Under the pieces are notes generated by a model. The model worked only from the letters and a program-made list of their open reading frames with translations, was not told the origin of the DNA and made no database searches. A program made the position numbers and the translations under genes. Below, one piece after another: positions 2 to 35,676 of a stretch of DNA of 54,548 nucleotides (the stretch's first letter is position 1; each line of letters starts with the position of its first letter). This DNA comes from Ruminococcus sp. Its GTDB lineage: Bacteria; Bacillota; Clostridia; Oscillospirales; Ruminococcaceae. The stretch lies in contig JAAYBK010000357.1 in assembly GCA_012718885.1 (NCBI GenBank), positions 1-54,548 on the forward strand, written 5' to 3'.

Positions 2-2224
2 CTTTCCGGCTGGCAGCTCCGTATCGCTTATGGTATTGTTCATCCATTCTGCAAGATAGGGGCCTGCCGGATACACATTCAGCACTCTGATATGCTCCTC
101 CTCGTTCCAGATAGAACGTGGCTCCCACTTCTCGCCGTTGGTTCTTCTGTTGAGCTGGTAGCTGTAGCTCTCGGCATCATTGCTGATATCGTTCCATGTG
201 ATATCTATCATGTTCTCCTGATCCGGATCCTCCGAGCTGTTCATTATAAGATCCTGAACAGGCTTATCAACTACCTGAAGCTTGCGCTGGCCTTCCTTCA
301 TGAGGTTGCCCTCGCTGTCATAAAGCTTGCCGGTAACTATATACTCTCCTGCATCCTTTACATGGAAAGTAAGCTGATCCTCGTTCTTGTATACAGGGAA
401 CTCAGCCTTGCCCTCGTAATATGTGAGAGTGCCCTTTTCAAGCTCAACGTCAAAGTTGGTATCTGTTATAAGCTCCTCGCCGCTATAGACTGCAAGCTCT
501 GCCTTGCCCTTGAAAGGGCCGTTGGAGTAGTAGTTGATCTCTGCTCCCGCAGTGATCTCCTTCTCGTTTCCGGCGTATACATAATACTCGCTGAGTATTG
601 GGCCGAACCAGGTCACTTCAAACTGAGTAGTCTCTCCGTCCTCAGGAGCATCCTCTATTACCGGTGCTTCGATGACATTGAACTCTGTCTCGCCCTTTAT
701 AACTTCTTTTCCGTCATGCAGGCATACTGCCTCGATAGTGTACTTGCCGGGCTTTGAGGTATCAGCCTTGAAGCTGAGAGGCTCCGGTGTTACCACTGTC
801 TTCTCAGGTACAAGCACTACCTTATCCGTCCTTGAAGCAACTTCCTTGCCGTCCTTCATGACTCTTGTCTTTATCTCCGCATTGTTCTCAACATTTGTAG
901 CGTAGAGAAGATCTGCTGTTACACTGACCTCCGCATCTGTACCGGTAAATGCTGAGTATTTGTCGGTATTTACTGCAAGGCAGCTTACCTCTGTTGAGTA
1001 AACTGTATCGTCCTCGCTTATCTGCATATCTATGCGCTGTGATTTTACGACCACATCACCCTTGAGGAGCTCTGCAACTGCATATACTTCCTTGCCTGGC
1101 TCGTTTATCCTGAACTCGCCGGCCTCTATCTCGGCTGAAGTACCGCTCTGAGGAAGAGAAGCCTTGCTGACGTTCTCGTATATGGGATTGCCGTCGCTGT
1201 ATACTGTGAACTTCAGGTCAAGCTCTGCGTCGTAATTGCTCTTATAGCCGATCTTTGTAACTGCCTTTACAGGCGCTGCACTTCCCGGCTTGCTCTCAGA
1301 TGTGCTGAGAGATGTGCTGAAAGTTGTAACATTCACTGAATTCTCAAGGTCAAGTCCTGTGAGGAGCTCTATTGCAAGGGCAGTTGTCCTGACGCTTCCT
1401 GCAAAGCTTCCGTCAGTTCTCTCCGCCTTGCTCAGATCGTTCACAACTGTAGCTGCATCGAACTTCTCTCCCGCTGCCAGGAATGCAAGGTACTTGCATA
1501 TAGTCTTATCTATACCGGAATCGGTATAGCTGTCGCTCACATTATCCTCAAGATAGCTGACAGGAGCTTCAAGTGCAGACATATCATAATTTCCTGCACT
1601 GAGGAACTTTCCGGCGTTATATACCACCATAGCTGTGAGCTCAGGGTCGCTGGCATTGTTATCCGCATAGGCAAATCCGCCGTCAGGAGCCTCTGTACTG
1701 AAAAGGTATGAGCATATAGCTGCTCCGGAGATATCTCCTCCGCTGTAGCCTGTCTCATTTATTGCTCCGAGCACAAGTGCTGAATCAAGCACATCGCTGG
1801 CATAATCCGGATAAAGGCCGAAGCCGCCGTCCTGATTCTGTTTTACCTCAAGCTTGCTCAGGTACTCCTGCTTTCCGGATGCAGCTGCAAGTCTTGCAGT
1901 CATATCCGTATTGCTGAATGATACCTTTTCCGAAAGCCACTGAAGGCTGTCATCATGTCCGCTCTTTTCAGCCTTACGGTAGGCCTTGAGGGCGTATGCA
2001 GTATCATTGACCGTTCTGCTGTCACCATAGCTGTTATCTGACGATTTCCTTGTGTCAAGATAAGCCGCAGCCTTATTTATCATGCCGCTGCGGATCTCCT
2101 TGGGATCCGGGGAGCCTGATCCATGGCTGCTTACCTTGATCATAGCACAGGTATTCACCCCAAGCACTGCGCTGAGGAATACAGAGATCGTCTTTCTGTT
2201 GATCTTCCTGCTCTTATGATCCAT
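2..2224 (-). CDS. Large secreted protein, N-terminal part only (runs off the left edge); prenyltransferase/squalene-cyclase-like repeats followed by probable beta-rich domains
   Basis: Absent from the ORF track because there is no stop in the window. Segments translated by hand from ATG 2224: MDHKSRKINRKTISVFLSAVLGVNTCAM (signal-like), QNQDGGFG and EAPDGGFAY motifs, and in the same frame at the edge HIRVLNVYPAGPYLAEWMNNTISDTELPAGK. GGAGG upstream. Middle not translated codon by codon. Confidence 0.8.
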   Translation of the reverse strand, partial: MDHKSRKINRKTISVFLSAVLGVNTCAMIKVSSHGSGSPDPKEIRSGMINKAAAYLDTRKSSDNSYGDSRTVNDTAYALKAYRKAEKSGHDDSLQWLSEKVSFSNTDMTARLAAASGKQEYLSKLEVKQNQDGGFGLYPDYASDVLDSALVLGAINETGYSGGDISGAAICSYLFSTEAPDGGFAYADNNASDPELTAMVVYNAGKFLSAGNYDMSALEAPVSYLEDNVSDSYTDSGIDKTICKYLAFLAAGEKFDAATVVNDLSKAERTDGSFAGSVRTTALAIELLTGLDLENSVNVTTFSTSLSTSESKPGSAAPVKAVTKIGYKSNYDAELDLKFTVYSDGNPIYENVSKASLPQSGTSAEIEAGEFRINEPGKEVYAVAELLKGDVVVKSQRIDMQISEDDTVYSTEVSCLAVNTDKYSAFTGTDAEVSVTADLLYATNVENNAEIKTRVMKDGKEVASRTDKVVLVPEKTVVTPEPLSFKADTSKPGKYTIEAVCLHDGKEVIKGETEFNVIEAPVIEDAPEDGETTQFEVTWFGPILSEYYVYAGNEKEITAGAEINYYSNGPFKGKAELAVYSGEELITDTNFDVELEKGTLTYYEGKAEFPVYKNEDQLTFHVKDAGEYIVTGKLYDSEGNLMKEGQRKLQVVDKPVQDLIMNSSEDPDQENMIDITWNDISNDAESYSYQLNRRTNGEKWEPRSIWNEEEHIRVLNVYPAGPYLAEWMNNTISDTELPAGK

Positions 2225-2441: not shown

Positions 2442-3734
2442 TTATACACATACTGATGAAAGTACATCTGGTATGAGAACTTCTGTAGTAACTATCCCCT
2501 TGTCAAATTTGAGATCGAATTCTCCGTTAAGATTACGGACACATTCCTGAACGTTCCTTATACCGTAGCCGTGTCCCTCCTCAGCCTTGCCTGATATGAA
2601 CCTGTCACCCTCAGTAACGGGCGCAGTGGATGAAGAGTTCTTCACTATTATCAGAAGGTTGGTATTGTACGTCTTCACTATCGCTTCAACATTTTTCTTC
2701 TCGGAAGCTGAGGCTGCTTCATAGGCATTTTTCATAATGTTTGAAAATACCGTACATATATCGTATGAGGAGAGCGACAGTCCCTCCGGCATATGTCCTT
2801 TCCAGGTGAAATCCACCTTAGGATACTTGGCGGAAAGGTCATTTATAACGGCACTCACCAGATCGTTTCCGGTATCCACGCTTTTTTTCAGATCCTTTAT
2901 CCTGTCTGTCAGTTCTGAAAGATAGGAGCGGCATTCATCCGTTTTTCCCTCATCGAAAAGCGTGCTCATACAGTAGAGGTGGCTCTTCATATCGTGGCGG
3001 AAGGCCTTTGTCTCCTCCTCTTTCTTCAGCAGCATGAGGTAATACTCTTCAAGTATGGCAGTCATTCTGCTGGCTGCTTCATTCTCCTTTTTCAGGATCT
3101 CGTTCTGGGATTTGTTGGAGATGAGCAGGACGATTATGACAATAAAGATAAGCGAACATATACCCATTGCCAGCGCTATCATATCACGGTTTGCCATATC
3201 GGAATCCGAGAATGCAAAGAGCTGTATGGACGTAAGATAGAAGACTATAGCTGCGCCGCCAAGTGCGAACATAAGCGTATAGCTCTTTGAGAACTGATAT
3301 GTAATGCTCTTGCGCCGGCGGTACTTCGCCAGCATGAATATTCCCACAATTATGAACGTCGGCATATTCACGAGCTGATATGTAAGAGTTCCGCTGCGGA
3401 CATTTGCTGTGTTCATTCCGAAGCCGTACATGATAAAGCCGTTTATTATCATGTCAAGTATGCAGATGTAGATATATATAACAAAGACATATACGATCTG
3501 GAGCTTCTTTTTCAGGATGCACAATGCAGAAAGCATGAGCAGCACTGTAAGGAACAGGCTTCTCGGCATTGCAGTCCATTGAACTAAAACGCCGAACAGG
3601 ATAGTAGATACGACCGTAGTCCATATCATCCGCCTTTTCGACACATAGGCCAGGCCGAAAAACATGAATGCCACCGGCACAAGTTTCATATACTCCGTAA
3701 GATAGGAGAGCATCTCAAATAATAATTCCTTCAT
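2442..3734 (-). CDS. AgrC/VirS-like GHKL sensor histidine kinase with multi-TM N-terminus
   Basis: Hydrophobic N-terminal half; FRHDMKSH H-box; NIMKNAYEA N-box; GHGYG G-box. Confidence 0.92.
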   Translation of the reverse strand: MKELLFEMLSYLTEYMKLVPVAFMFFGLAYVSKRRMIWTTVVSTILFGVLVQWTAMPRSLFLTVLLMLSALCILKKKLQIVYVFVIYIYICILDMIINGFIMYGFGMNTANVRSGTLTYQLVNMPTFIIVGIFMLAKYRRRKSITYQFSKSYTLMFALGGAAIVFYLTSIQLFAFSDSDMANRDMIALAMGICSLIFIVIIVLLISNKSQNEILKKENEAASRMTAILEEYYLMLLKKEEETKAFRHDMKSHLYCMSTLFDEGKTDECRSYLSELTDRIKDLKKSVDTGNDLVSAVINDLSAKYPKVDFTWKGHMPEGLSLSSYDICTVFSNIMKNAYEAASASEKKNVEAIVKTYNTNLLIIVKNSSSTAPVTEGDRFISGKAEEGHGYGIRNVQECVRNLNGEFDLKFDKGIVTTEVLIPDVLSSVCV

Positions 3735-3743
3735 ACCGCTGCC

Positions 3744-4448
3744 TCACACATACTTCGCATTGCTGCGGATGAATTCAAAGTAACTTGTTTTAAGCTGGCT
3801 GTACTTTCTTCGTGAGACAGGTATCTCATCTTTAAGAAAGTCCATAGACACGCTGGTCTTATTCAGTGCACGTATGTGCCCGAAAGCAACAGCATATGAC
3901 TTATGCACCTGTATGAAGCTTCCGTCATCCAGGTCGGCAAGCAGGTTCTTGAGCTGCGCCTGAGCACAGATGACATCGTCTTTTGTATAGATATATGTAC
4001 CGTCGCCGAAGGCTTCGAGACTGATTATATCCTCGCAGTTGACTGTTACCATTTCTCCGGCACTCTTTACGACTATCTTTTTATCCTGTCTGAGTTCGGA
4101 GCAGGTCTCAGCAACAGCCTCCTCCAGCATTTTTCTGTCAACAGGCTTTTCAAGGAAACGGAACGCCCTTACCCTGAAGGCGGCCTGCATGAATTCGGTA
4201 TGGCTGGTAAGAAAGACTATATTGCTCTTGCAGCCCTTCTTTCTCAACTGCTCAGCGGTCTCCATTCCGTTGATACCGTTCATCTCGATATCAAGGAAGA
4301 TGAGATCGTATATCCCCTCTGAGCGGACGAGCTCCTCGCCTGAAGAATACTCCTTGACATCGAATTCTATGTCAAGGGTTCCGAGTGCACTTATCAGATC
4401 GCCCCTGACAAGCGCTTCATCATCACATATTGCAATTTTCAACACCAT
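3744..4448 (-). CDS. LytTR-family response regulator (AgrA-like)
   Basis: KIAICDDE, IFLDIEM, FLTSH, FLEKP receiver motifs; FIQVHKSY and IPVSRR LytTR motifs. Confidence 0.95.
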   Translation of the reverse strand: MVLKIAICDDEALVRGDLISALGTLDIEFDVKEYSSGEELVRSEGIYDLIFLDIEMNGINGMETAEQLRKKGCKSNIVFLTSHTEFMQAAFRVRAFRFLEKPVDRKMLEEAVAETCSELRQDKKIVVKSAGEMVTVNCEDIISLEAFGDGTYIYTKDDVICAQAQLKNLLADLDDGSFIQVHKSYAVAFGHIRALNKTSVSMDFLKDEIPVSRRKYSQLKTSYFEFIRSNAKYV

Positions 4449-4464
4449 TTAGATCACCTCCTTT

Positions 4465-4493
4465 ATTGTAACATATGTAATAGATTTTTTCAA
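4465..4493 (-). promoter_or_regulatory. Putative promoter of LytTR/HK operon 1
   Basis: TTGAAA-17-TACAAT with TG, immediately followed by SD AAAGGAGGTGA. Confidence 0.5.
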
Positions 4494-4541: not shown

Positions 4542-4572
4542 AAAAAAAATCGGACGGCATGAATCCGTCCGA
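4542..4572 (-). terminator. Intrinsic terminator closing the putative ncRNA
   Basis: tcggacgg/ccgtccga 8 bp stem followed by U8 on the minus strand. Confidence 0.75.
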
Positions 4573-5168
4573 CCACTACAGGGTGTGTTTTTTGTAACTT
4601 TCTTTTAATAATGGATTATCTTGCACAGAGTTTATCCTTATGCGCTTTATCAAGTTGTTGATATTAATCTGGGGATCATAAGTAGGTGATTAACAGAAGA
4701 TCTGGGGGTGAACAGATCTGAATGCTTGGACATTTACTGTATAGAGTGTGCATAACAGTATCAGGATCAGGAGTTATAAATCTCATGAAGCTGACCTTCT
4801 GAGCCGTGACTTATAATTCTTATGATAGAATATCGGTGGAGAGAACACCCGGATTGTATTACGATAATTGCTACGAGCCTTGCTACGTTTTATGGTGAGT
4901 TTGAGAAGTATTCAAAAATGACCGGAAGAATGCTTTGACATTCACAGCGGAGTGGGAAACATAGGGTGGAAGTTTCTCTGTTCAGGCCGTTTTTGAATAC
5001 CGTCCCATAGAACGATGTCTGCATGGTTTTTTTGGTGAATCTGATGGAGAGTCGTTGTTAGATCTTTAATACATCCGTAAGAGCTATAAATTGGCTGTTA
5101 ATATCAACAGCTTGATAAAACGCACATGATATTGAGTGTGACTCATTTTTGAGTTGTCCTCTGTGCTG
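4542..5168 (-). ncRNA. Putative ~625 nt structured regulatory RNA (RNAIII/VR-RNA-like context; family not recognised)
   Basis: No long ORF; bounded by a promoter (5174-5202) and a terminator; nested long-range helices 4623-4630/5159-5166, 4641-4667/5098-5124, 4851-4861/5067-5076, 4886-4895/5005-5014, 4908-4923/4985-5000. Confidence 0.65.
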
Positions 5169-5173
5169 ATTAT

Positions 5174-5241
5174 ATTCTATCACAGCTTCAGGCATATTTC
5201 AAGAGGTTTTCGGTCATCGGTATTTTTTGGACGGTGAACGG
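5174..5241 (-). promoter_or_regulatory. LytTR-type boxed promoter (leftward)
   Basis: Repeats CCGTTCACCG (5241-5232) and CCGATGACCG (5220-5211), 21 bp period; 8 bp; TTGAAA-17-TAGAAT with TG. Confidence 0.75.
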
Positions 5242-5273
5242 TAGAATATGGCGCAGATGCGTGATTTTAAGCA

Positions 5274-5341
5274 CCGTTCACCGCTGAAAAAACGCCGTTC
5301 ACCGGAGTGGGATTTACTTTTTCACATTTTTATTGTATTAT
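5274..5341 (+). promoter_or_regulatory. LytTR-type boxed promoter (rightward)
   Basis: CCGTTCACCG at 5274 and 5295 (21 bp period); 8 bp; TTTACT-17-TATTAT. Confidence 0.75.
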
Positions 5342-5386
5342 TAGTATAGCATTTTATTGCGAATAACTGTATGGAGGTGCTTCCAA

Positions 5387-5428
5387 ATGAAAAGTTTGGT
5401 AGATTGGTTCTGGTGGATCTTCGGATGA
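5387..5428 (+). CDS. 13-aa micropeptide MKSLVDWFWWIFG, putative signalling peptide
   Basis: GGAGGTG SD 7 nt before ATG; own boxed promoter and terminator; resembles MGGFWDFIFGR at 33.2/33.5 kb. Confidence 0.7.
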   Translation: MKSLVDWFWWIFG

Positions 5429-5472
5429 TATTCAATGGGGTGAGATCATTCGTATAATTCAAAAACGAATCA

Positions 5473-5515
5473 GAAAGAGCTCCTGCGGAAGCCTAATCCG
5501 CAGGAGCTCTTTTTC
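5473..5515. terminator. Bidirectional intrinsic terminator
   Basis: agagctcctgcgga/tccgcaggagctct stem with flanking A/T runs between convergent units. Confidence 0.8.
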
Positions 5516-5516
5516 T

Positions 5517-5987
5517 TTAATCTATCGGTATTACAGGAAGCTCTATCGCTCCGGACTCATCTCGTTCAAGAAGACCGTCCTCCGTGTTTGCTGTAGGCAA
5601 TTCCGGTGTCTCAGCCGGCGAATTATCGTCCGGTGTGAGCGCAGTTGCAGACTGACCTGCACTTGCTCCCTCAGTAACAGCCTGTACGGTGTCTGTTTTA
5701 CTTTCATTTGCAGGGATAGTTCCTTCATCCGTAGTCTGCTGCTTTGCAGCCTCTGTTGTTCCGGCAGCAGCTTCTGTAGAAGCCTGCTTTGCATCGGAGC
5801 CCGCTCCGCCTTTATCCTTTTCACCGGCAGCTCCGCCCTCGGATGCTGCTTCCTCAGCAGTTGTATCCTCGGTTGCGGCAGTTTCAGATGTTGTCTCGGA
5901 TGATGAAGATGATGAACTGTTTCCGCCGTTGCATGAAACGAGTGCGACTGACAGAAGCAGTGTTAAAACGATCAATGTTTTTTTCAT
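5517..5987 (-). CDS. Putative lipoprotein, Ser/Thr/Ala/Glu-rich low complexity, C-terminal IELPVIPID
   Basis: Start reassigned to MKKTLIVLTLLLSVALVSC (lipobox-like), GGAGG SD; the longer track ORF is antisense to the next gene. Confidence 0.75.
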   Translation of the reverse strand: MKKTLIVLTLLLSVALVSCNGGNSSSSSSSETTSETAATEDTTAEEAASEGGAAGEKDKGGAGSDAKQASTEAAAGTTEAAKQQTTDEGTIPANESKTDTVQAVTEGASAGQSATALTPDDNSPAETPELPTANTEDGLLERDESGAIELPVIPID

Positions 5988-6044
5988 ATTTCCTCCTGTT
6001 GATTTCCTTTTTTTACTGTGATATAATATCCATGAGGTGATATT

Positions 6045-6896
6045 ATGCGAATTGGTTTTATAGGTGCGGGAAAGGTCGGCTTTTCCCTTGGAAAATACCT
6101 TGCCGTCAACGGCGTTGAGATATCCGGCTATTTCAGCCGCAGCCGCAGCTCCGCAGAGGAAGCTGCCGGATTCACCGGCTCGGCAGTATTCGACGATCCG
6201 GGAACGCTTGCCGCACAGAGCGATACGATATTCATCACTGTCCCCGACGGAGCAATATCCTCCGTTTTCGATCAGCTCAGAGATCACAGCCTCTCCGGAA
6301 AGACGATATGCCATTGCAGCGGCGCTATGACCGCAGATGAAGCCTTCGGCGACCTTTCTGCATACGGCGCATACGGCTGTTCGATACATCCGCTTTTCCC
6401 GGTCAGCAGCAGATATGATTCCTACAAGGAACTGAAAAGTGCTTTCTTCTGTATGGAGGGCAGCAGCGCTGTCATAAATGACTGGAAGGAGCTGTTTTCC
6501 GGCTTCGGCAATCCTGTCCGTATCATCTCCGGTGATACCAAAAGAGAATACCACGCTGCCTGTGCCATATCCAGCAACCTTGTCTGCGCTCTTGTGGCAG
6601 AAAGCACTGAGCTTATGAATAAATGCGGCTTCTCCGGCGAGGAGGCTCTTGCCGCACTTGAGCCGCTTGCTATGGCAAATATAAAAAAGATATTCAGCGC
6701 CGGTCCTGTGGATGCTCTTACAGGCCCGGTCGAGCGCTGCGATATATCCACTGTAAAAAAGCATCTGGCCTGTCTGCCGGAAGGCTCCGGAAAAGAAATG
6801 TACCGGGCAGTATCCCTCAGGCTGACAGATACTGCTGCAAGGAAGCATCCTGACACCGATTACTCGGAAATGAGAGCTCTCCTCGGCAAGAAATAA
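6045..6896 (+). CDS. Rossmann-like + DUF2520 protein, probable PanG-type ketopantoate reductase
   Basis: GFIGAGKVG, HCSGA, SIHP, YHAAC, LTGPVER motifs; adjacent to panBCD. Confidence 0.8.
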   Translation: MRIGFIGAGKVGFSLGKYLAVNGVEISGYFSRSRSSAEEAAGFTGSAVFDDPGTLAAQSDTIFITVPDGAISSVFDQLRDHSLSGKTICHCSGAMTADEAFGDLSAYGAYGCSIHPLFPVSSRYDSYKELKSAFFCMEGSSAVINDWKELFSGFGNPVRIISGDTKREYHAACAISSNLVCALVAESTELMNKCGFSGEEALAALEPLAMANIKKIFSAGPVDALTGPVERCDISTVKKHLACLPEGSGKEMYRAVSLRLTDTAARKHPDTDYSEMRALLGKK

Positions 6897-10368: not shown

Positions 10369-10889
10369 TATTGCTTATACTTGACGCACAAAAGCTCATC
10401 ACCAACGATAAGCTATATAACTTTCCCGTATTTGAGAGCCGGGTGCGGCAGCTCATCTCCTGTGCCCGTGAAAACGGGACTGAGGTCATCTTCGTCCGCC
10501 ATGATGACGGAGAAAACGGCCCTCTGAAAAAAGGGACAGAGGGATTTGAGATATACAACGGCTTCCGGCCGCTGGAAAATGAGCGGATATTCGACAAGAC
10601 CGTAAATAGTCCTTTCCGTGACACCGGACTGCTGGAATACCTCCGTGAAAAGGGCGAGGATACTATAATGCTCGCCGGCCTTCAGACCGATTACTGCATG
10701 GATGCCGCAGTGAAAGCCGGTTTCGAGCACCGTTTCCGCATGGTCATCCCGGAAGGTACGAACTCCACCTTCGACAACGGATTCATGTCAGCCGCCGATA
10801 CCTGCCGTTATTACAATGATTTTATGTGGAACAGGAGATATGCGGAATGTATCCCCTTCGACAAGGCTCTTGCCCTGCTTAAAGAATAA
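10365..10889 (+). CDS. Isochorismatase-family cysteine hydrolase
   Basis: LLILDAQ, KTVNSPF, GLQTDYCM. Confidence 0.9.
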   Translation: MILLILDAQKLITNDKLYNFPVFESRVRQLISCARENGTEVIFVRHDDGENGPLKKGTEGFEIYNGFRPLENERIFDKTVNSPFRDTGLLEYLREKGEDTIMLAGLQTDYCMDAAVKAGFEHRFRMVIPEGTNSTFDNGFMSAADTCRYYNDFMWNRRYAECIPFDKALALLKE

Positions 10890-10930
10890 AAAAAGTCCTT
10901 ATGGAGACTGTCTCCGTAAGGACTTTTTAT
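10889..10930 (+). terminator. Intrinsic terminator (possibly bidirectional)
   Basis: aaaaagtccttatggaga/tctccgtaaggacttttt. Confidence 0.75.
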
Positions 10931-10991
10931 TTTGGTCAGGCTTATAAAATCTGACATAAGTGCGATGCTTATATAGCAGTTATATGTGAGA

Positions 10992-11060
10992 TATTGAGGG
11001 AAACCCTTTTGGAAAGGGGGTCGGGGAAGAACCTTTCCTCAGAAAGGTTTTCCCCGAGTA
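10992..11060. repeat. REP/MITE-like palindromic element, internally deleted copy
   Basis: 11022-11060 is the exact 39 bp reverse complement of 36443-36481. Confidence 0.8.
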
Positions 11061-11104: not shown

Positions 11105-12589
11105 TTATATAACACGCTTTCTTACAATGCTCTGCACTGCGAATTTACCGCTGGTAGCTGCAAGCGGAAGTCCGCCTGTAGGCTGGAGCCACTGGCTGGC
11201 AAGAAACGCATTCTTTATACCGGGTACAGAGGATTTCAGGTATATGCTCTTCTTGCCCTCTACAGGGATGAAGCTCATGTATGAGCCCTTGAAGGCTCCG
11301 CAGTAGCGCTTGAAGGTGATCGGAGTACAGGCGCTGAGGAACACAAGCTTTCCGTTCAGTTCAGGATACTTCTCTGTAAGTCTGCGGAGCAGTTCCTCTG
11401 AAATGCGCTTCTTTTCCTCAACATAGGCGCTGCGGTCTGCATGGAGCTCACGCCAGTGATCGTAATCAGTCTCGTCCTGCATTATGGTACACTGTATAAC
11501 TCTCTTTCCATCGGGATAAAGCGACTTGTCATAGTCGTAAAGCCTTGTGGAAACGAAGTCGTACTCCTTTCCGGCTGCGGTATACGGCTCGCACGAGAAC
11601 AGCTCAGAACCGCTCTCCATGGAGATTTCATCTGTTCCCACGATACCGAAGGCTGCTATGAATGCAGAGGATACCGGATAGCCGCTGCGGTCCTTATAAA
11701 GCTTTTTCAGCTTCTTCGGAGTGTACTTCTTATCGAGTATGTGGTTGAAGGTAACTATCGGATCACAGGCAAAAAGAAATGCGTCGGCAGTGACAACATC
11801 GCCGTTTTCAAGAGTTACTGACACTATATTTCCCTTCTGGACATCGGATGAGGCAACAGGCGAATTCAGGAACACCTTTCCGCCAAGGGACTCAAAACGC
11901 TCACGCATCCTCTTTATAAGTCCCATTGAACCACCCTCGGGGATAGCAGCGCTGCCACTGGTGAAGAATCCGTATGAGGTGATGAGAGATACCGCACTGT
12001 GATGCGGCTCATAGTAGCTGCGGATCATCTTCTGTATCGCAGGATGCTTGAAGTGCTCTGCAAGCTGTACAACAGTTTCCTTGCCGTGCTTCATGAGCAC
12101 TCTTCCCATTTCAGCCATGCTCATGCTGAATTTTATGTTGGCTATGATACCCATGTCAGCCATTGACTGCTCGCTGGGTACTACCACACATTCCGCACGC
12201 TTTACGCTGTCAAAGAATTCATTGATCGCCGCTTCGTCCTCCGGAGATACCTCCAGGAATTCCTTCCTGGATCTTTCGATATCTCTCCAGAAGCAGAGCT
12301 TCACGCCGTCAAATTCCCCTCTGTAGAAGAAATCCTCTCTGTAGAGCTCTATATCCTCTCCGAGAACACCGATATTGTTCCAGAGACCTCTCAGCTTCTC
12401 GCCCGGGCGACAGCCTGTGAGCCAGTGCATACAGTTATCTACAAGATAACCGTCTCTGTACCAGCCTGTACACTCTCCGCCCAGAACATTGTTCTTTTCG
12501 TATATTTCTACCTCAAGATCCTGCTGCAAAGCATATATGCCTGCGCTCAGACCGGATATGCCTCCGCCTATAATAACAACTTTTTTCAT
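11105..12589 (-). CDS. Phytoene desaturase (CrtI)-family FAD oxidoreductase
   Basis: GGGISGL...EKNNVLGG, PEGGS, TPITFKRY, QWLQPTGGLP. Confidence 0.85.
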   Translation of the reverse strand: MKKVVIIGGGISGLSAGIYALQQDLEVEIYEKNNVLGGECTGWYRDGYLVDNCMHWLTGCRPGEKLRGLWNNIGVLGEDIELYREDFFYRGEFDGVKLCFWRDIERSRKEFLEVSPEDEAAINEFFDSVKRAECVVVPSEQSMADMGIIANIKFSMSMAEMGRVLMKHGKETVVQLAEHFKHPAIQKMIRSYYEPHHSAVSLITSYGFFTSGSAAIPEGGSMGLIKRMRERFESLGGKVFLNSPVASSDVQKGNIVSVTLENGDVVTADAFLFACDPIVTFNHILDKKYTPKKLKKLYKDRSGYPVSSAFIAAFGIVGTDEISMESGSELFSCEPYTAAGKEYDFVSTRLYDYDKSLYPDGKRVIQCTIMQDETDYDHWRELHADRSAYVEEKKRISEELLRRLTEKYPELNGKLVFLSACTPITFKRYCGAFKGSYMSFIPVEGKKSIYLKSSVPGIKNAFLASQWLQPTGGLPLAATSGKFAVQSIVRKRVI

Positions 12590-12610
12590 AATTTTACTCC
12601 TTAATAAAGC

Positions 12611-13348
12611 TTATGCAGATACCATATCCGCAATATCATCTGCTATCTCATCCAGTGCCGGAAGCATATCTGTTCTCTTTGGTATTACCATACCTATGGA
12701 TACTCCGTCACGGGATACGGCCTGGAACGAATACTGGCCGAAATATCTGAAAGTACCCGTTACAAGCTCTCCCTCACGGCGTATCTCCGTAAGCTCAAGC
12801 AGCTTCGGCGAGAAGAAAAGACTGAGCTTCAGACATTTTATCAGTGCTTCTCTCACTGTCCAGAATATAGTGGTATCCAGCCCCAGCTCATCTACCGCCC
12901 TGCTCTCCTCTTCTGAGAGGGTGAGGCTGTTCTTCATCTCCTGTGACAGCTCTTTTTCCATATCTATACCTATGATGAGCTCATCGGGATATGCCACCGC
13001 TGCGGCAGCTCCTCCGGTATGAGTAACTGTCACCTGGAAGCGTCCTCCGGGCTCGTTCAATGCAAGAGGCTGGCTGAACACTCCCTTGCTGATGCTTATA
13101 TCGCCGATATCAGTACCGGCCAGCTCGGCAACCGCCTTCTTGGCAGCATATCTCCCTACTATAACATCATCTCTGTGCGAGGGCTTTCTTATGGGGGATA
13201 TGTATTTCATATCCTCGGTATCAAGGAAGGAAAGATCTTTCAGCTCACATCCGCCGTTCTTTCCGGCATAGGTGAATACAGCCCTGTATTCACTGTCTGT
13301 TGCTCTGAATCCAAGTCCGCAGCTCCTGCTGTTTATTTTCTGTTCCAT
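12611..13348 (-). CDS. 4'-phosphopantetheinyl transferase
   Basis: GRYAAKKA, VTVTHT, IGIDME, FWTVREALIK; start MEQKINS after GGAGG. Confidence 0.85.
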   Translation of the reverse strand: MEQKINSRSCGLGFRATDSEYRAVFTYAGKNGGCELKDLSFLDTEDMKYISPIRKPSHRDDVIVGRYAAKKAVAELAGTDIGDISISKGVFSQPLALNEPGGRFQVTVTHTGGAAAAVAYPDELIIGIDMEKELSQEMKNSLTLSEEESRAVDELGLDTTIFWTVREALIKCLKLSLFFSPKLLELTEIRREGELVTGTFRYFGQYSFQAVSRDGVSIGMVIPKRTDMLPALDEIADDIADMVSA

Positions 13349-13358
13349 ACTGACCTCC

Positions 13359-14840
13359 TTACTGCACTCCCGAAAATGGAATGCCCTCATTTGCACATAT
13401 ACGCTGTATAGCTGACTTTCCGCTGACCAGTGCGTCCGGGAGACCTCCCATTACGCTGAACCACTGTCCGGCAGCGTAAAGTCCGCTCAGTCCTTTTATT
13501 ATACCGCTGTGATACATCTTTGATGTGGCCGGAGTGAGCATGAAGCCCATATATGCTCCATGATATGCTCCGCAGTAGCGCTCATATGTCAGCGGCGTGG
13601 TAACATCGCACATCACCACTTTGCCCTTCGTCTCAGGGAAGAAACGATACAGATACTCAAGATATGCCTCTTTGATCTCTTCCTTTTTGCGGAGGTATTC
13701 CTCACGGGACAGACCGTACCATTTGCTGTAGTCGTATACGGTAAGGCCGGTCTTAACGACGCTGCATCCCTCCGGAGCGAAGTTCTTTTCGCTGCAATAG
13801 TTTGTGAAGAGCACGCTCTCTATAGTCTCGCCGGCTATCTCACGCTCATCTATGGCATATATCATCTTTGAAGGATATGCCGAAAGATCACATTCAACTC
13901 CGAAGGCTACCTGAGCTATGCTGCTTGTCCGGAAGCCCTCGCCGGTGTAGAAGCTGTCCAGCACCGGATCGCTGTACCTGCTTTTCAGCAGCTTATGGAG
14001 AGTGATATCCAGATCGCAGGTGGGCACTATATAGTCGCCGCTCACCGCTGTTCCGTCCTCAAGGACTATCCCCTCTACCCTGCCGTCATTGACTGTTATC
14101 TCAGCCACGGCCTTTCCGCAGTTCAGGACGCCGCCAAGGCTCAGGAAGCAGGCCTTCATATTGTCAGTGATACGCTGTGAGCCTCCTGCCGGCCAGCCTG
14201 CATGGCAGCCTGCCAGTGCTCCGAGCGTTACCAGTACTCCCTGCACCAGATTATCCTTGAAGGAGAACGAGAGTATCGCCTTCCTTATAAGCTCCGAGCT
14301 GAAGCGCTCTGTGTACTCTTCTGTGGTAAGGCTGCTGACCTTGTTCAGTGCCTTGAAGAGCTGCATCATATGCTTTATATGATCCCGACGCTCAGCAGGA
14401 TCCATTATATCCATAGGCTTCCTTGCCGGTACCTCAAACGAGCTCAGGTCATTTATTATGGCGATAAGCTCATCTATTGCCTCCGAATCCTCCGGGGAAA
14501 GCTCCTTGAGATGGGCTGAAAGTTTATCGGTATCACGATACCAGTACAATCTTCTGCCTTCATGCTCGATAACGGAGAATACGTCTGCAAATGTTATATC
14601 CTCATTTCTGAATGCGCCTGTTTCCAGCCACACATCATTTATCGCTGTACCGGGCTTTACTCCGGTGAGCCAGCTTATTGAGCCGTCTATGGTATAGCCC
14701 TTTCTCTTCCAGGCTATACATTCACCGCCGGCATTTATGTTCTTTTCGTATATCTCGCAGCTGAATCCGTTCTTCAGGGCGTATATGCCAGCCGAAAGTC
14801 CGGATATACCTGCGCCGATGACAATTACCTTTTTCATCAT
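13359..14840 (-). CDS. Phytoene desaturase (CrtI)-family FAD oxidoreductase
   Basis: GAGISGL, PAGGS, TPLTYERY, GQWFSVMGGLP. Confidence 0.85.
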   Translation of the reverse strand: MMKKVIVIGAGISGLSAGIYALKNGFSCEIYEKNINAGGECIAWKRKGYTIDGSISWLTGVKPGTAINDVWLETGAFRNEDITFADVFSVIEHEGRRLYWYRDTDKLSAHLKELSPEDSEAIDELIAIINDLSSFEVPARKPMDIMDPAERRDHIKHMMQLFKALNKVSSLTTEEYTERFSSELIRKAILSFSFKDNLVQGVLVTLGALAGCHAGWPAGGSQRITDNMKACFLSLGGVLNCGKAVAEITVNDGRVEGIVLEDGTAVSGDYIVPTCDLDITLHKLLKSRYSDPVLDSFYTGEGFRTSSIAQVAFGVECDLSAYPSKMIYAIDEREIAGETIESVLFTNYCSEKNFAPEGCSVVKTGLTVYDYSKWYGLSREEYLRKKEEIKEAYLEYLYRFFPETKGKVVMCDVTTPLTYERYCGAYHGAYMGFMLTPATSKMYHSGIIKGLSGLYAAGQWFSVMGGLPDALVSGKSAIQRICANEGIPFSGVQ

Positions 14841-15592
14841 ACTGCCTGCCTGTCAAGAAAGACCGATCTGTCCATGAACTCGTCGCAGTCATGGCCGCAT
14901 ATGACCTGATCGCATTTTCCCGAGATAAGGTTAAGCCTTTCCAGCGAATCGGCTGCCTGCTGCTTCTTGAACGGATAGGGCGGCACTCTGTTGGACTTCA
15001 TATTGTCCCATGAGTATACTGCATCGCCTGTGAGGAGAAGTCTCTTTTCACGGCCTGTGAGTATCAGGGACTGATGTCCGGCGGAATGTCCCGGTGTCTG
15101 TATAAGCTTCATGCAGGGCATACCGTCTATGTTCATATCCTCAGATGTCCAAACAACATTGGATGCGTCCTTCAGAAAATCGTGATCCTGTACCTTGTAT
15201 TCAAAGCTGCGCTCCGAGCCCTGTGCGTATTCATACTCCCTGCGGTTCACATACAGCGGAACATCGGTGCCTTCAAACACTCTCAGGCCTCCGGCATGGT
15301 CGAAATGGAGATGAGAGCAGATAACGCCTTTCAGATCCCCGGGTTTGATCCCGTGCTCTGCAAGCTTGCTTCTGAGCATATGCTCAGGGTATACCTTAAC
15401 GTCCATGAACACCACCAGGTCTTCCATGATAGCCTTGATATCGCTTATAAACAGAGTGTTGAGACCTGTGTCGAAAAGGTATATGCCGTTTTCGGTATAT
15501 ATCAGATAAGAGTATACTTTAAGTGCCTCTTTTTTGTATTTGAATCCCACCTCGCCCATAAACATGGGGATCACATTGGAAACATGATTCAT
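14837..15592 (-). CDS. Metallo-beta-lactamase-fold hydrolase, N-acyl homoserine lactonase (AiiA)-like
   Basis: SHLHFDHAGG, TPGHSAGHQS, TGDAVY, GHD. Confidence 0.85.
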   Translation of the reverse strand: MNHVSNVIPMFMGEVGFKYKKEALKVYSYLIYTENGIYLFDTGLNTLFISDIKAIMEDLVVFMDVKVYPEHMLRSKLAEHGIKPGDLKGVICSHLHFDHAGGLRVFEGTDVPLYVNRREYEYAQGSERSFEYKVQDHDFLKDASNVVWTSEDMNIDGMPCMKLIQTPGHSAGHQSLILTGREKRLLLTGDAVYSWDNMKSNRVPPYPFKKQQAADSLERLNLISGKCDQVICGHDCDEFMDRSVFLDRQAV

Positions 15593-33193: not shown

Positions 33194-33229
33194 TTATCTT
33201 CCGAAGATGAAATCCCAGAATCCGCCCAT
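33194..33229 (-). CDS. 11-aa micropeptide MGGFWDFIFGR, copy 1
   Basis: ATG GGC GGA TTC TGG GAT TTC ATC TTC GGA AGA TAA; SD GAAGGAAG; own promoter and terminator. Confidence 0.82.
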   Translation of the reverse strand: MGGFWDFIFGR

Positions 33230-33281: not shown

Positions 33282-33347
33282 ATTATATTTCATATTTCCC
33301 GTTCCCTCAATCAATATGGAGTAAACGAGACGTTTTCCGGAGTAAAC
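33282..33347 (-). promoter_or_regulatory. LytTR-type boxed promoter of peptide copy 1
   Basis: GTTTACTCC twice (cores 33347-33340, 33326-33319); 8 bp; TTGAGG-17-TATAAT. Confidence 0.8.
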
Positions 33348-33476: not shown

Positions 33477-33512
33477 TTATCTTCCAAAGATAAAATCCCA
33501 GAATCCGCCCAT
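33477..33512 (-). CDS. 11-aa micropeptide MGGFWDFIFGR, copy 2
   Basis: Same peptide as copy 1 with two synonymous TTC>TTT changes; SD AAAGGAG. Confidence 0.82.
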   Translation of the reverse strand: MGGFWDFIFGR

Positions 33513-33561: not shown

Positions 33562-33627
33562 ATTCTACCACTCTCTATAGTCCCCGGCAACTTAATCAGA
33601 GTAAACCGACATTTATTTGGAGTAAAC
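33562..33627 (-). promoter_or_regulatory. LytTR-type boxed promoter of peptide copy 2
   Basis: GTTTACTC twice (33627-33620, 33606-33599); 8 bp; TTGCCG-17-TAGAAT with TG. Confidence 0.8.
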
Positions 33628-33671: not shown

Positions 33672-34382
33672 ATGAAGATAGCAATTTGTGATGATAAGGC
33701 AACTATGCGCAGAGACCTGAAAAAACATCTTGAAGATTACGCAATAAAACGAAGGCTTGATCTTGTGTATGACGATTACAGCAATGGTTCAGACCTCCTT
33801 GCAAGCCCTATTGAATACGATGTAATATTTATGGACTATCAGATGGATGGCCTGGACGGCCTGGAAACCTCACGCAAGCTCAGGGACAAGAACATCAAAG
33901 CTGTTATAATATTCCTGACAAGCTTCCCGCATATAGTATTCGATGCATTTGAAGTGAACACATACCGCTTCCTGCTCAAGCCTATAGATGCAGAAAAGCT
34001 GGCCTCAGCTATGGATGACTACCTTAAAAGTCTCGATGACAGCCAATATATAGTAATAAAGACCGATGATGACAACCGGAGGATAAATATCGACGACATT
34101 ATATATGCCGAAGCCTCTGATAAATATTGCTATATCAGAACTGCTGACGAGAACATCCTATACAAGAATACCCTTTCAGAATTTGAAAAGCTTCTGCCGC
34201 AGGATTCCTTCTTCCGCAGCCACAGAACATATCTGGTAGGCTTCAAGCATATCGTTTCACATACTGCGGCAAATATACTCTTCGATAACAAGGAGCGTGC
34301 CCTTATCAGCAAGCTGAAGTATACTCCTTTCAAAAAGGCTTTTCTGGACTATGTAAAGCGCTACAACTTCTCAAAGGGCTGA
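33672..34382 (+). CDS. LytTR-family response regulator
   Basis: KIAICDD, IFMDYQM, FLLKP, FFRSHRTYLV. Confidence 0.95.
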   Translation: MKIAICDDKATMRRDLKKHLEDYAIKRRLDLVYDDYSNGSDLLASPIEYDVIFMDYQMDGLDGLETSRKLRDKNIKAVIIFLTSFPHIVFDAFEVNTYRFLLKPIDAEKLASAMDDYLKSLDDSQYIVIKTDDDNRRINIDDIIYAEASDKYCYIRTADENILYKNTLSEFEKLLPQDSFFRSHRTYLVGFKHIVSHTAANILFDNKERALISKLKYTPFKKAFLDYVKRYNFSKG

Positions 34383-34386
34383 GACC

Positions 34387-35676
34387 ATGGAATACATCAT
34401 ATACTTTATATCAAACTTCATACTATGCTCAGCAATATTCAGATCAATGTGCGTGTTCCTGAAGATGAAACCGGCTCACGGACAGATATTCAATAACGTA
34501 TGTCTGCTGATGTGCTCGCTCACATCCGTTTCAGTGCTTCTTCCGGCATCATCTATACCGCCGGTGCTAAGAGTATTCATAATACTGCTGGCCATATCAG
34601 GAAAAATGATATTCTTCTCGCTTATATTCGGCAAGCTCAACCTTAAAGTGATATATGTCTGCCTGCTGTCAATGGTAACGAGCTCAAATTACGACACTAT
34701 CCTGACTCTGCTGATCCAGGATAAGACCTGGCGCAGCATCGCAGCCTTTCTGCTGGAATCAGCCATACTGGGAGCTGTGCTCATGTACACCAAAAAGAAG
34801 GATCTACGGGATGTATTCTATGAATATATAAGAGTCCTGCCAAAGAAGCTCTATGCAGTCATACTCATATTCCTGTATGTTATGAATCTGGTGATATTCG
34901 CCTCCATAGACCCGAAATACGGAGATATCTCCAAGGTTATGCTGCTCCCGGCCTTTATATTCATGACGATCATCGTCTACTGGGTGCTCAAGGTCAGCAT
35001 ATCCGAGCACGAAAACAAGCAGGTATCATATATACTCTCTAAGCAGCTCGAAACACAGGTCAGCTACTATGAGAAAATAAACAGCATTTACAATGAATTC
35101 AGGAGCTTCCGCCACGACTTCAAAAACCACCTTCTCTGCCTCAGGAGCCTGCTTGCAGAAAACGAGGTGGAGAACGCTCTGGATTATATGAACGACATAG
35201 AAAATATGTCCTACACCGAAAAAAAGAACTTCGATACGGGAAATATCATCGCAGACGCACTTCTGAACGATAAGAACGAAAAAGCTGCCGCCTGCAATTC
35301 AAGGATTACATTCAGCGGATATGTCCCTACAAACGGAATAACCAACACAGACCTCTGCACCATTATGGCAAACGCCCTGGATAACGCTATCGAGGCTTGC
35401 GCCAAGGATACCGGAGACGAGTTAAAGGAGATAAAAGTAGAATCCGACTTCAAACAGGGCTATTTCTTCTTCAAGGCCACAAATCCGGTATTTGAAAAGG
35501 TGGACATCAAAAACGGCAACGAGCTGAAGACCTCAAAGGAGGATAAGTCCTGCCATGGATTCGGCGTGGCTAACATTGTTAAGACCGCTAAAAAATACGG
35601 TGGCTCTGCCCATGCCTCAATATCCGATAACAAATTCATCCTCGAAACAGAGCTCCTGCTCAACAGAGAGATATAA
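34387..35676 (+). CDS. AgrC/VirS-like GHKL sensor histidine kinase
   Basis: Multi-TM N-terminus; FRHDFKNH; NALDNAIEA; HGFG. Confidence 0.93.
   Translation: MEYIIYFISNFILCSAIFRSMCVFLKMKPAHGQIFNNVCLLMCSLTSVSVLLPASSIPPVLRVFIILLAISGKMIFFSLIFGKLNLKVIYVCLLSMVTSSNYDTILTLLIQDKTWRSIAAFLLESAILGAVLMYTKKKDLRDVFYEYIRVLPKKLYAVILIFLYVMNLVIFASIDPKYGDISKVMLLPAFIFMTIIVYWVLKVSISEHENKQVSYILSKQLETQVSYYEKINSIYNEFRSFRHDFKNHLLCLRSLLAENEVENALDYMNDIENMSYTEKKNFDTGNIIADALLNDKNEKAAACNSRITFSGYVPTNGITNTDLCTIMANALDNAIEACAKDTGDELKEIKVESDFKQGYFFFKATNPVFEKVDIKNGNELKTSKEDKSCHGFGVANIVKTAKKYGGSAHASISDNKFILETELLLNREI

Follow-up and report, generated by a model that had tools for sequence, protein, structure and literature searches.

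Bacterial RNAs of more than 500 nt are rare, and the large effector RNAs driven by LytTR-type regulators (RNAIII, VR-RNA, SpoZ and FasX, the last of ~200 nt) have been studied in pathogens. In the agr system of Staphylococcus aureus, RNAIII is a large multi-hairpin RNA with C/U-rich loops; its promoter is one member of a divergent, LytTR-boxed pair, and a peptide gene, a membrane kinase and a LytTR regulator are encoded alongside (PMC3673130, PMC4691137). SpoZ of Clostridioides difficile (RgaSR) and VR-RNA of Clostridium perfringens (VirSR) are RNAs of 386–528 nt directly activated by clostridial LytTR/VirR-type regulators (PMC10602386, PMC4691137); SpoZ is part of a very small direct regulon and has as its target an antisense ORF next to it (PMC10602386). 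FasX of Streptococcus pyogenes is activated by an AgrA-like regulator and uses CU-rich motifs on target mRNAs (PMC4691137, PMC3673130). The ROOL, GOLLD and OLE RNAs are comparable in size (ROOL averages 581 nt), rumen origin and multi-junction fold, and ROOL has tRNA or phage genes nearby (PMC5737381).

The locus described here lies in a window of 54,548 nt, the whole stretch of DNA that was analysed, from a Ruminococcus sp. genome (G000; 86% complete). The minus strand of this window carries, at 4542–5167, a ~625-nt non-coding RNA gene that is almost certainly real and that forms a new, narrowly distributed family within a known kind of circuit. It shares with RNAIII the general build and neighbourhood given above, but has no sequence or Rfam similarity to it and no supported embedded ORF comparable to hld, and it is enclosed by a 28-bp helix. 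A clostridial LytTR/VirR-type regulator is common to this locus, SpoZ and VR-RNA, and the G at −51 and −72 and what appears to be a very small direct regulon are further likenesses to SpoZ; however, no antisense ORF of the kind on which SpoZ acts is conserved here, the host and peptide class differ from those of SpoZ and VR-RNA, there is no Rfam match, and the sequences were set apart by description rather than by alignment. FasX is much shorter, lacks a divergent peptide gene and has no sequence similarity. From ROOL, GOLLD and OLE the RNA is separated by the lack of a covariance-model match and of a tRNA or phage link, by its occurrence in three close genomes only and by its LytTR promoter. 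The best reading of these comparisons would be an independently evolved effector of the RNAIII/VR-RNA/SpoZ kind. If this is true, the unrelated RNA of a rumen commensal would show that such a circuit repeatedly arises independently, and would make signalling between cells, and control after transcription, open to experiment in rumen Ruminococcus. No description of the RNA or of the Trp-rich peptide class was found in the literature searched, whose scope stopped short of subscription papers and supplements (e.g. the motif tables of PMC5737381).

Layout and promoters of the locus

The RNA gene is flanked by a tiny peptide gene on one side and by a sensor-regulator pair on the other. The peptide transcript, on the plus strand, comprises a box pair of direct repeats (5273–5303), a promoter motif (5313–5341), a 13-codon Trp-rich ORF, MKSLVDWFWWIFG (5387–5428; homologues MKGLVDWFWWIFG and MNGPKAVIDWLWWLFH), with a strong GGAGGTG ribosome-binding site, and a predicted terminator (5472–5514). 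Downstream of the RNA, on its own minus strand, lie a response regulator with REC and LytTR domains (3744–4448; Pfam PF00072 and PF04397) and a membrane histidine kinase with a GHKL domain (2442–3734; PF14501) and an AgrC/VirS-like architecture, its N-terminal half holding at least five hydrophobic segments in a crude scan. This operon has a separate promoter (4465–4493), which is also conserved in the related genome G018. Judged from its sequence, the set of peptide gene, RNA, downstream LytTR regulator and GHKL kinase is an agr-like layout without AgrB, and it is more agr-like than the earlier note had it because the divergent peptide gene has a box pair of its own. In contrast to agr, no AgrB scored over the cut-off in the 86% complete genome, a leaderless 13-residue Trp-rich peptide replaces AgrD, and the RNA is followed, in its own orientation, by the regulator and kinase genes; the regulator scores 33 bits, far below the AgrA cut-off of 400. 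The peptide is likely to be a signal or a modulator of the kinase.

A LytTR-boxed promoter had been claimed at 5174–5202 and was found there on the minus strand, as a sigma-70-type promoter with a −35 TTGAAA, a 17-nt spacer and an extended −10 (TG-A-TAGAAT) that places the predicted start at ~5167. Just 5' of the −35 stand two tandem repeats 21 nt apart, a distal box ACCGTTCAC (5232–5242) with 8/9 and a proximal box ACCGATGAC (5211–5221) with 7/9 matches to the LytTR consensus [TA][AC][CA]GTTN[AG][TG] (PMC5600425); the boxes of the locus score 8/9, 7/9 and 7/9. With +1 at 5167, the central G of the distal box falls at −72 and that of the proximal box at −51, and PMC10602386 describes G at −51 and −72 as critical in the RgaR-activated spoZ promoter. 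The tandem boxes are conserved and lie beside a LytTR two-component system, and the two box pairs face outwards, 5242–5211 serving the RNA and 5273–5303 the peptide transcript.

Box pairs with no mismatch occur in G000, G036 and G018 only at the RNA and peptide promoters; with two mismatches allowed, two, three and one further pairs appear, against one, zero and one for reversed-pattern controls. As these two promoters carry the sole perfect pairs, the direct output of the regulator appears to be the peptide and the RNA. Activation of the RNA promoter through its LytTR boxes is very probable, and the pairing of box and regulator as cognate partners is inferred from the co-occurrence of the box with this regulator subfamily.

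Conservation and predicted fold

The RNA is single-copy in G000. BLAST over 161 genomes of the genus returned full-length homologues in two of the 160 others (G036, 96% identical, and G018, 89%), each at the same locus and at a single site, together with scraps of 30–44 nt in eight more; among ~401 sampled genomes of the family BLAST did not find the RNA, only nine scraps. A covariance model of 4665–4800 run over 150 genus genomes recovered just the three training genomes, and a profile search 5' of 30 regulator homologues gave a promoter-only match in G034. Of 80 metagenome loci reached via the regulator, two were close relatives, both near-identical to the known homologues. Exact patterns matched 12 stretches in genome contigs, with both arms of the long helix in two records only, both of them MAGs (one Ruminococcus flavefaciens, one Clostridiales); neither exact patterns in viral contigs nor the phage and plasmid collections gave a match. 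Rfam returned no match at the gathering score in the window, and the 21 weak matches at E up to 10 were all far under cut-off and included none to RNAIII, ROOL, GOLLD or OLE.

Conservation against G018 is confined to the boxes, the −35/−10, the RNA body and the terminator. The RNA is 89% identical there, compared with 32–43% for flanking spacers and 42–58% for four-fold sites of four neighbouring genes. The RNA box pair is conserved at 91–97% and the spacer between the two box pairs at 32% in G018; the −35 and −10 are retained in both homologues, with an intervening spacer 41% identical in G018. The terminator, which the earlier note had put at 4542–4572, is an intrinsic terminator (4542–4574) with a stem at 4574–4548 and a U-run to 4542. 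It is conserved at 91–97% (91% in G018), and the spacer downstream of it is 42% identical in G018.

The distribution is patchy, and the arms of the long helix form a 27-nt inverted repeat ~430 nt apart, as the terminal inverted repeats of a MITE or other mobile-element remnant might. Such an origin is next to negligible and is largely refuted: the RNA is present once in G000 and at one site each, at the same locus, in G036 and G018, it is more conserved than coding DNA, and its conservation reaches past the repeat to the promoter and terminator, whereas a true palindromic repeat of this genome was matched on 44 contigs, its two strands folding equally well. In a single-copy element without an Rfam match we saw no sign of the mobile remnant or known family against which the earlier note had cautioned. 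The palindromic repeat itself is MITE-like and ~240–310 nt long (contig C397, ~10700–11010, and contigs C444, C116, C148, C1 and others), with matches of >150 nt on the 44 contigs.

The minus-strand RNA has a predicted folding energy of −170.9 kcal/mol, which gives a z of −9.5 relative to 20 shuffles. Corrected for composition it ranks fifth among 135 long-intergenic 626-nt windows of G000 (z −8.2), the four windows above it being two copies of the palindromic repeat; without this correction, 26 of 134 intergenic windows are more extreme. The plus strand also folds beyond chance (z −4.8), and the earlier caveat that some stems pair better on that strand through G-U pairs was borne out: the raw energy is lower there (−189.6 kcal/mol), and 13 of 125 confident pairs are G-U compared with 8 of 144 on the minus strand. 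Substitutions hit 46 of 246 positions predicted unpaired and 24 of 383 predicted paired on the minus strand (Fisher p 2e-6); on the plus-strand fold the same substitutions fall at 31 of 222 and 39 of 407. Covariation analysis of the three close species found two-sided changes in 0/179 and 0/36 pairs, and gave nothing because the homologues are too close. The fold is thus a prediction whose backing is the substitution pattern.

A closing helix joins GCACAGAG with CUCUGUGC (5166–5159/4630–4623, pair probability 1.0). It bears out the proposed end pairing as a helix but is not a pairing of the true 5' and 3' ends, because ~80 nt, made up of the tail and the terminator, come after it; in G018 it is re-registered rather than lost, with one pair gone and neighbouring pairs gained. 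The 27-position helix noted at 4641–4667/5098–5124 was recovered as an inverted repeat of 27 nt, 93% complementary with two non-Watson-Crick positions, which the minus-strand fold lengthens to 28 bp (5126–5098 with 4667–4639; pair probability 0.97–0.99). Both of its arms are identical at 29/29 positions across the three genomes. It encloses a multi-hairpin core (4668–5097), the portion recovered from RNA libraries, in which the nested helices described earlier are present in the minus-strand fold.

Two C-rich minus-strand loops had been pointed out, and both are predicted to be fully open and are the same in all three genomes: UUCCACCCUAU (4971–4961, open probability 0.99), with the first copy of CACCC, and UUCACCCC (4712–4705, 1.0), with the second. 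A third CACCC, kept in all three genomes, lies in the 3' tail (4581–4585; open probability 0.47), and a further invariant loop, UUCUCUC (4839–4845), is the complement of GGAGAGAA-type sites. The anti-SD-like AUCACCU (4690–4684), part of AUCACCUACUU (4679–4691), is present as claimed but is half-buried in a stem, its CACC open with probability 0.52. The unpaired share in the RNA is 50% for C and 14% for G, compared with 30% and 27% in the tmRNA of G000. Five C/U loops are free of substitutions in the three genomes, and a rigid scaffold with the 28-bp helix is predicted to keep these five pyrimidine loops open.

We weighed whether the transcript might be a small-protein mRNA, with a 20-codon ORF (5146–5084) in a dual role like that of delta-haemolysin, or a type I antitoxin silencing the divergent hydrophobic peptide. 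The ORF keeps its start and stop in three of three genomes and has AGAGGA upstream, but its ribosome-binding site and start lie within stems and all three of its codon changes in G018 alter the residue, none being synonymous; no ORF in the RNA shows signs of protein-level selection across the three genomes. For the antitoxin, a conserved GGGUGA in the 3' UTR of the peptide could pair with UUCACCCC (−13.9 to −20.2 kcal/mol before opening costs). This GGGUGA is, however, base-paired within the UTR itself (open probability ≤0.009), the complementarity spans just 6–8 nt, the 5' region of the peptide scores weakly (−0.5 kcal/mol), and related peptides occur at loci without the RNA. Either role appears highly improbable.

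Recovery from RNA libraries

Twenty-four public runs from 15 studies match the RNA, mostly bovine gut and bioreactor metatranscriptomes, with 21 recorded as RNA. We examined eight of them, including six RNA runs from six studies; the runs had been picked by the sequence of this RNA. All six RNA runs carry a contig over the RNA, mostly just over the core within the helix (4668–5100), at 4667–5116, 4670–5103, 4668–5101, 4657–5085, 4601–5095 and 4670–5101. Among runs whose kind of library is unrecorded, X24 gave a contig at 4669–5101, and X22, with low and even cover across the region, one that starts at 4899, crosses the 5' arm and the promoter and ends at 5352. The core contig of run X1 had a word depth of 440.6 compared with 2.9–5.9 for four zero-difference regulator and kinase contigs; nothing in X1 covers 5182–6200. 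Contig depth cannot rank genes, and assembled contigs give neither strand, true ends nor level. As the runs were also picked by sequence, the contigs establish presence and only suggest that the core is abundant in rumen and bioreactor RNA.

Contig ends coincide with the inner base of the long helix, four of the six RNA runs stopping at 4667–4670 and four at 5095–5103; the X5 contig reads through the 3' helix arm. A cut that put the 5' end at 5101 would leave this end base-paired to 4664, which is compatible with RNase III, and RNase III is encoded in G000. This is a weak hint that the long helix may be cut to release a core of ~440 nt, and we lean against it; library bias against double-stranded RNA explains the ends equally well. 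The absence of RNA contigs from the 5'-most 50 nt and from the terminator is uninformative, because short contigs were filtered and double-stranded parts may drop out.

One further X1 contig (3964–4571) bridges the terminator and the regulator gene, with one end inside each. It would suit a long cis-acting leader of an inducible read-through regulator-kinase transcript, giving positive feedback, with the core as a stable by-product; the RNA lies on the same strand as the operon and directly 5' of it, and G034 has a peptide and ~440 nt of non-coding sequence in the equivalent position. Yet the RNA ends in a strong conserved terminator and the operon has its separate conserved promoter, a leader would not need invariant open loops, contig depth differs ~75-fold or more, and the read-through contig could be DNA carry-over, which makes the leader decidedly improbable.

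Candidate targets and related box-driven units

We consider it more probable than not that the RNA is a base-pairing effector, a preference that comes from the circuit logic, the loop invariance and precedent and in which predicted targets play no part. The fuller proposal, that this ~625-nt RNA is the main LytTR output and acts in trans through its C-rich loops on the ribosome-binding sites of mRNAs, we hold only slightly likelier than its opposite. The Trp-rich peptide, or another cue, would act on the kinase; from consensus and geometry, the phosphorylated regulator would bind the −72/−51 tandem boxes at the two divergent promoters, and the activated promoters would make more peptide as well as the RNA. 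The scaffold closed by 28 bp would then present five invariant pyrimidine loops, whose CACCC copies may initiate pairing with mRNAs that bear the variant GGGUG site, the UUCUCUC element with GGAGAG-type and the AUCACCU element with AGGUGAU-type sites. Pairing would block translation and invite RNase III cleavage in the manner of RNAIII. Of the independent RNAIII analogue proposed in the earlier note, the conserved LytTR-boxed non-coding unit without an Rfam match held up; the pairing mechanism drew no support from targets or covariation.

CACCC occurs three times in the RNA compared with 0.53 expected (p 0.011, for a motif picked after inspection), and ranks seventh among over-represented 5-mers, a place without significance once multiple testing is allowed for. 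Words of the generic anti-SD type are no commoner in the RNA than in shuffles (4-mers, 20 vs 19.9; 5-mers, 6 vs 4.6), and the best-exposed loops complement the variant GGGUG rather than the canonical GGAGG. Among 2670 predicted genes (crude gene calls), 62 have GGGTG in their ribosome-binding window, compared with 15 and 9 for control windows. Hfq is present in all three RNA-bearing genomes. The ribosome-binding site that serves the regulator itself (4453–4463) has a complement that AUCACCUACUU matches at 10 of 11 positions; at least 10 are reached by 38 of 3000 shuffles. Target prediction, put forward earlier as a check, went against the proposal: the best duplex energies with 5' regions lay within the shuffled range for all 10 segments, and seed patterns by start codons in the three genomes were near the reversed-pattern controls.

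A SigI-like gene, followed by an anti-sigma-like ORF, tops the 2670 genes for the 10-mer around the loop at 4712–4705, a 10-mer picked after the list had been seen. It drops out of the first 30 when opening costs are included, and its site is predicted buried; this site occurs in 26 of the 30 orthologues from the genus, 23 of these in the 27 examined genomes without the RNA; sigI is only a lead as a target. Signal-peptide genes make up 12 of the top 30 predictions (p 0.025), an enrichment that is gone at 50 or more. The site of a pilin candidate is kept in G036 only, G018 having just a distant pilin, and a deacetylase candidate has no orthologue at threshold. A CAP-domain gene has GGGGTG in all three RNA-bearing genomes and a GGAGG-type site in G014, its start in G019 being uncertain, and these kin are not independent. 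An extended scheme, in which AgrB-independent signalling by Trp peptides of 11–16 residues and LytTR kinase-regulator pairs, with its own RNA, matured by RNase III to a core of ~440 nt, lets CACCC loops read the GGGUG of ~60 genes (sigI-rsgI, dockerin-type secreted proteins, pilin) and so retunes the surface and fibre-degrading machinery with cell density by way of the class of ribosome-binding site, seems to us quite unlikely. Apart from any role of the RNA, the SigI-like gene (L238 2019–2744, minus strand; L239–L268) has the unusual ribosome-binding site GGGGGTG in 26 of 30 orthologues. The prediction is that a conserved stretch of the coding sequence sequesters this site, which may thereby act as a conserved switch at the post-transcriptional level.

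The failure of target prediction would fit a LytTR-induced structural RNA that binds or sequesters a protein (e.g. a C/U-binding factor) or self-assembles like ROOL or OLE, its loops serving as contacts. Size, the nested multi-junction fold, the invariant 29-nt helix arms and recovery in many metatranscriptomes agree with this, as does an internal repeated hairpin, AAUGU-CxAA-GCAUU, and the 28-bp helix with its nested architecture is more rigid than a simple hairpin array needs, which counts against a pairing effector. A structural role is nevertheless unlikely: there is no Rfam match to ROOL, GOLLD or OLE at E up to 10, the distribution is narrow, no tRNA or phage genes lie nearby as they do for ROOL (PMC5737381), no phage or plasmid sequence matches, and the loop of the repeated hairpin is altered in G018. 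The pairing effector stays the preferred reading.

The box pair also precedes related peptides, MQKMILIDWLWWLFQ (G019) and MLTKLNWLWRLFF (G034), mostly followed by a TTGAAA-like −35, and in G057 a related peptide adjoins the box. Elsewhere in the genus it stands ahead of an ORF resembling a bacteriocin, of a thioesterase cluster, of a surface protein and of other non-coding promoter-terminator units (G014, G019, G034). The signature of open C and paired G recurs in two of four such non-coding units, those of G014 (241 nt, z −7.7) and G034 (532 nt, z −4.6), the latter in the same position as the RNA, upstream of the regulator. Local alignment of the RNA to five other box-driven transcripts gave nothing significant, and an unfiltered covariance-model search of 10 loci reached 17.5 bits at best, on a terminator hairpin. 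Box-pattern matches in 21 other genomes among the 401 family genomes were treated as chance; among the matches listed, none of 21 sites has a TTGAAA-like −35, and two have TTGGTG at +9 in a coding-like context.

Three of these units merit separate description. The G014 unit (C24, L177 ~938–1178, plus strand) is a box-driven non-coding stretch of 241 nt with a long hairpin and C/U-rich loops, a candidate independent sRNA. In G034 (C62, L183 ~3521–4053, minus strand), a peptide ORF precedes a non-coding, C-rich stretch of ~440 nt that is closed by a terminator just 5' of the regulator, a candidate dual-function RNA. The G019 unit (C36, L180 ~1197–1581, minus strand) is a box-driven promoter-terminator unit of 385 nt, G/A-rich with several GGA motifs (z −3.2).

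Short Trp-containing ORFs such as MGNFLEWLFNGR, MTWSTILDFLFGNK, MSKLVEWLNSLWY and MIGSLTNWLWRLFKR stand beside LytTR regulators across the genus, at eight loci (L025, L039, L041, L042, L047, L175, L176 and L183). They are likely, from their sequences, to form an undescribed peptide family, and the short Trp-rich peptides associated with the RNA circuit appear to be a class of signal that has not been described before. The window holds a second LytTR regulator-kinase pair (33672–35676, plus strand), with two identical 11-codon ORFs, MGGFWDFIFGR, on the minus strand (33194–33229 and 33477–33512), each with a ribosome-binding site; these copies support short aromatic peptides as cognate partners. 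Its repeats are of another type, GAGTAAAC-N13-GAGTAAAC, with boxes at 33319–33347 and 33599–33627 (plus strand), and, read from translations, an aminotransferase-like gene and an ABC transporter adjoin on the peptide strand. Also read from translations, the window encodes at 11105–15592 (minus strand) two tandem flavin-dependent oxidoreductases, a phosphopantetheinyl-transferase-like gene and a metallo-hydrolase like quorum-quenching lactonases, possibly a secondary-metabolite cluster.
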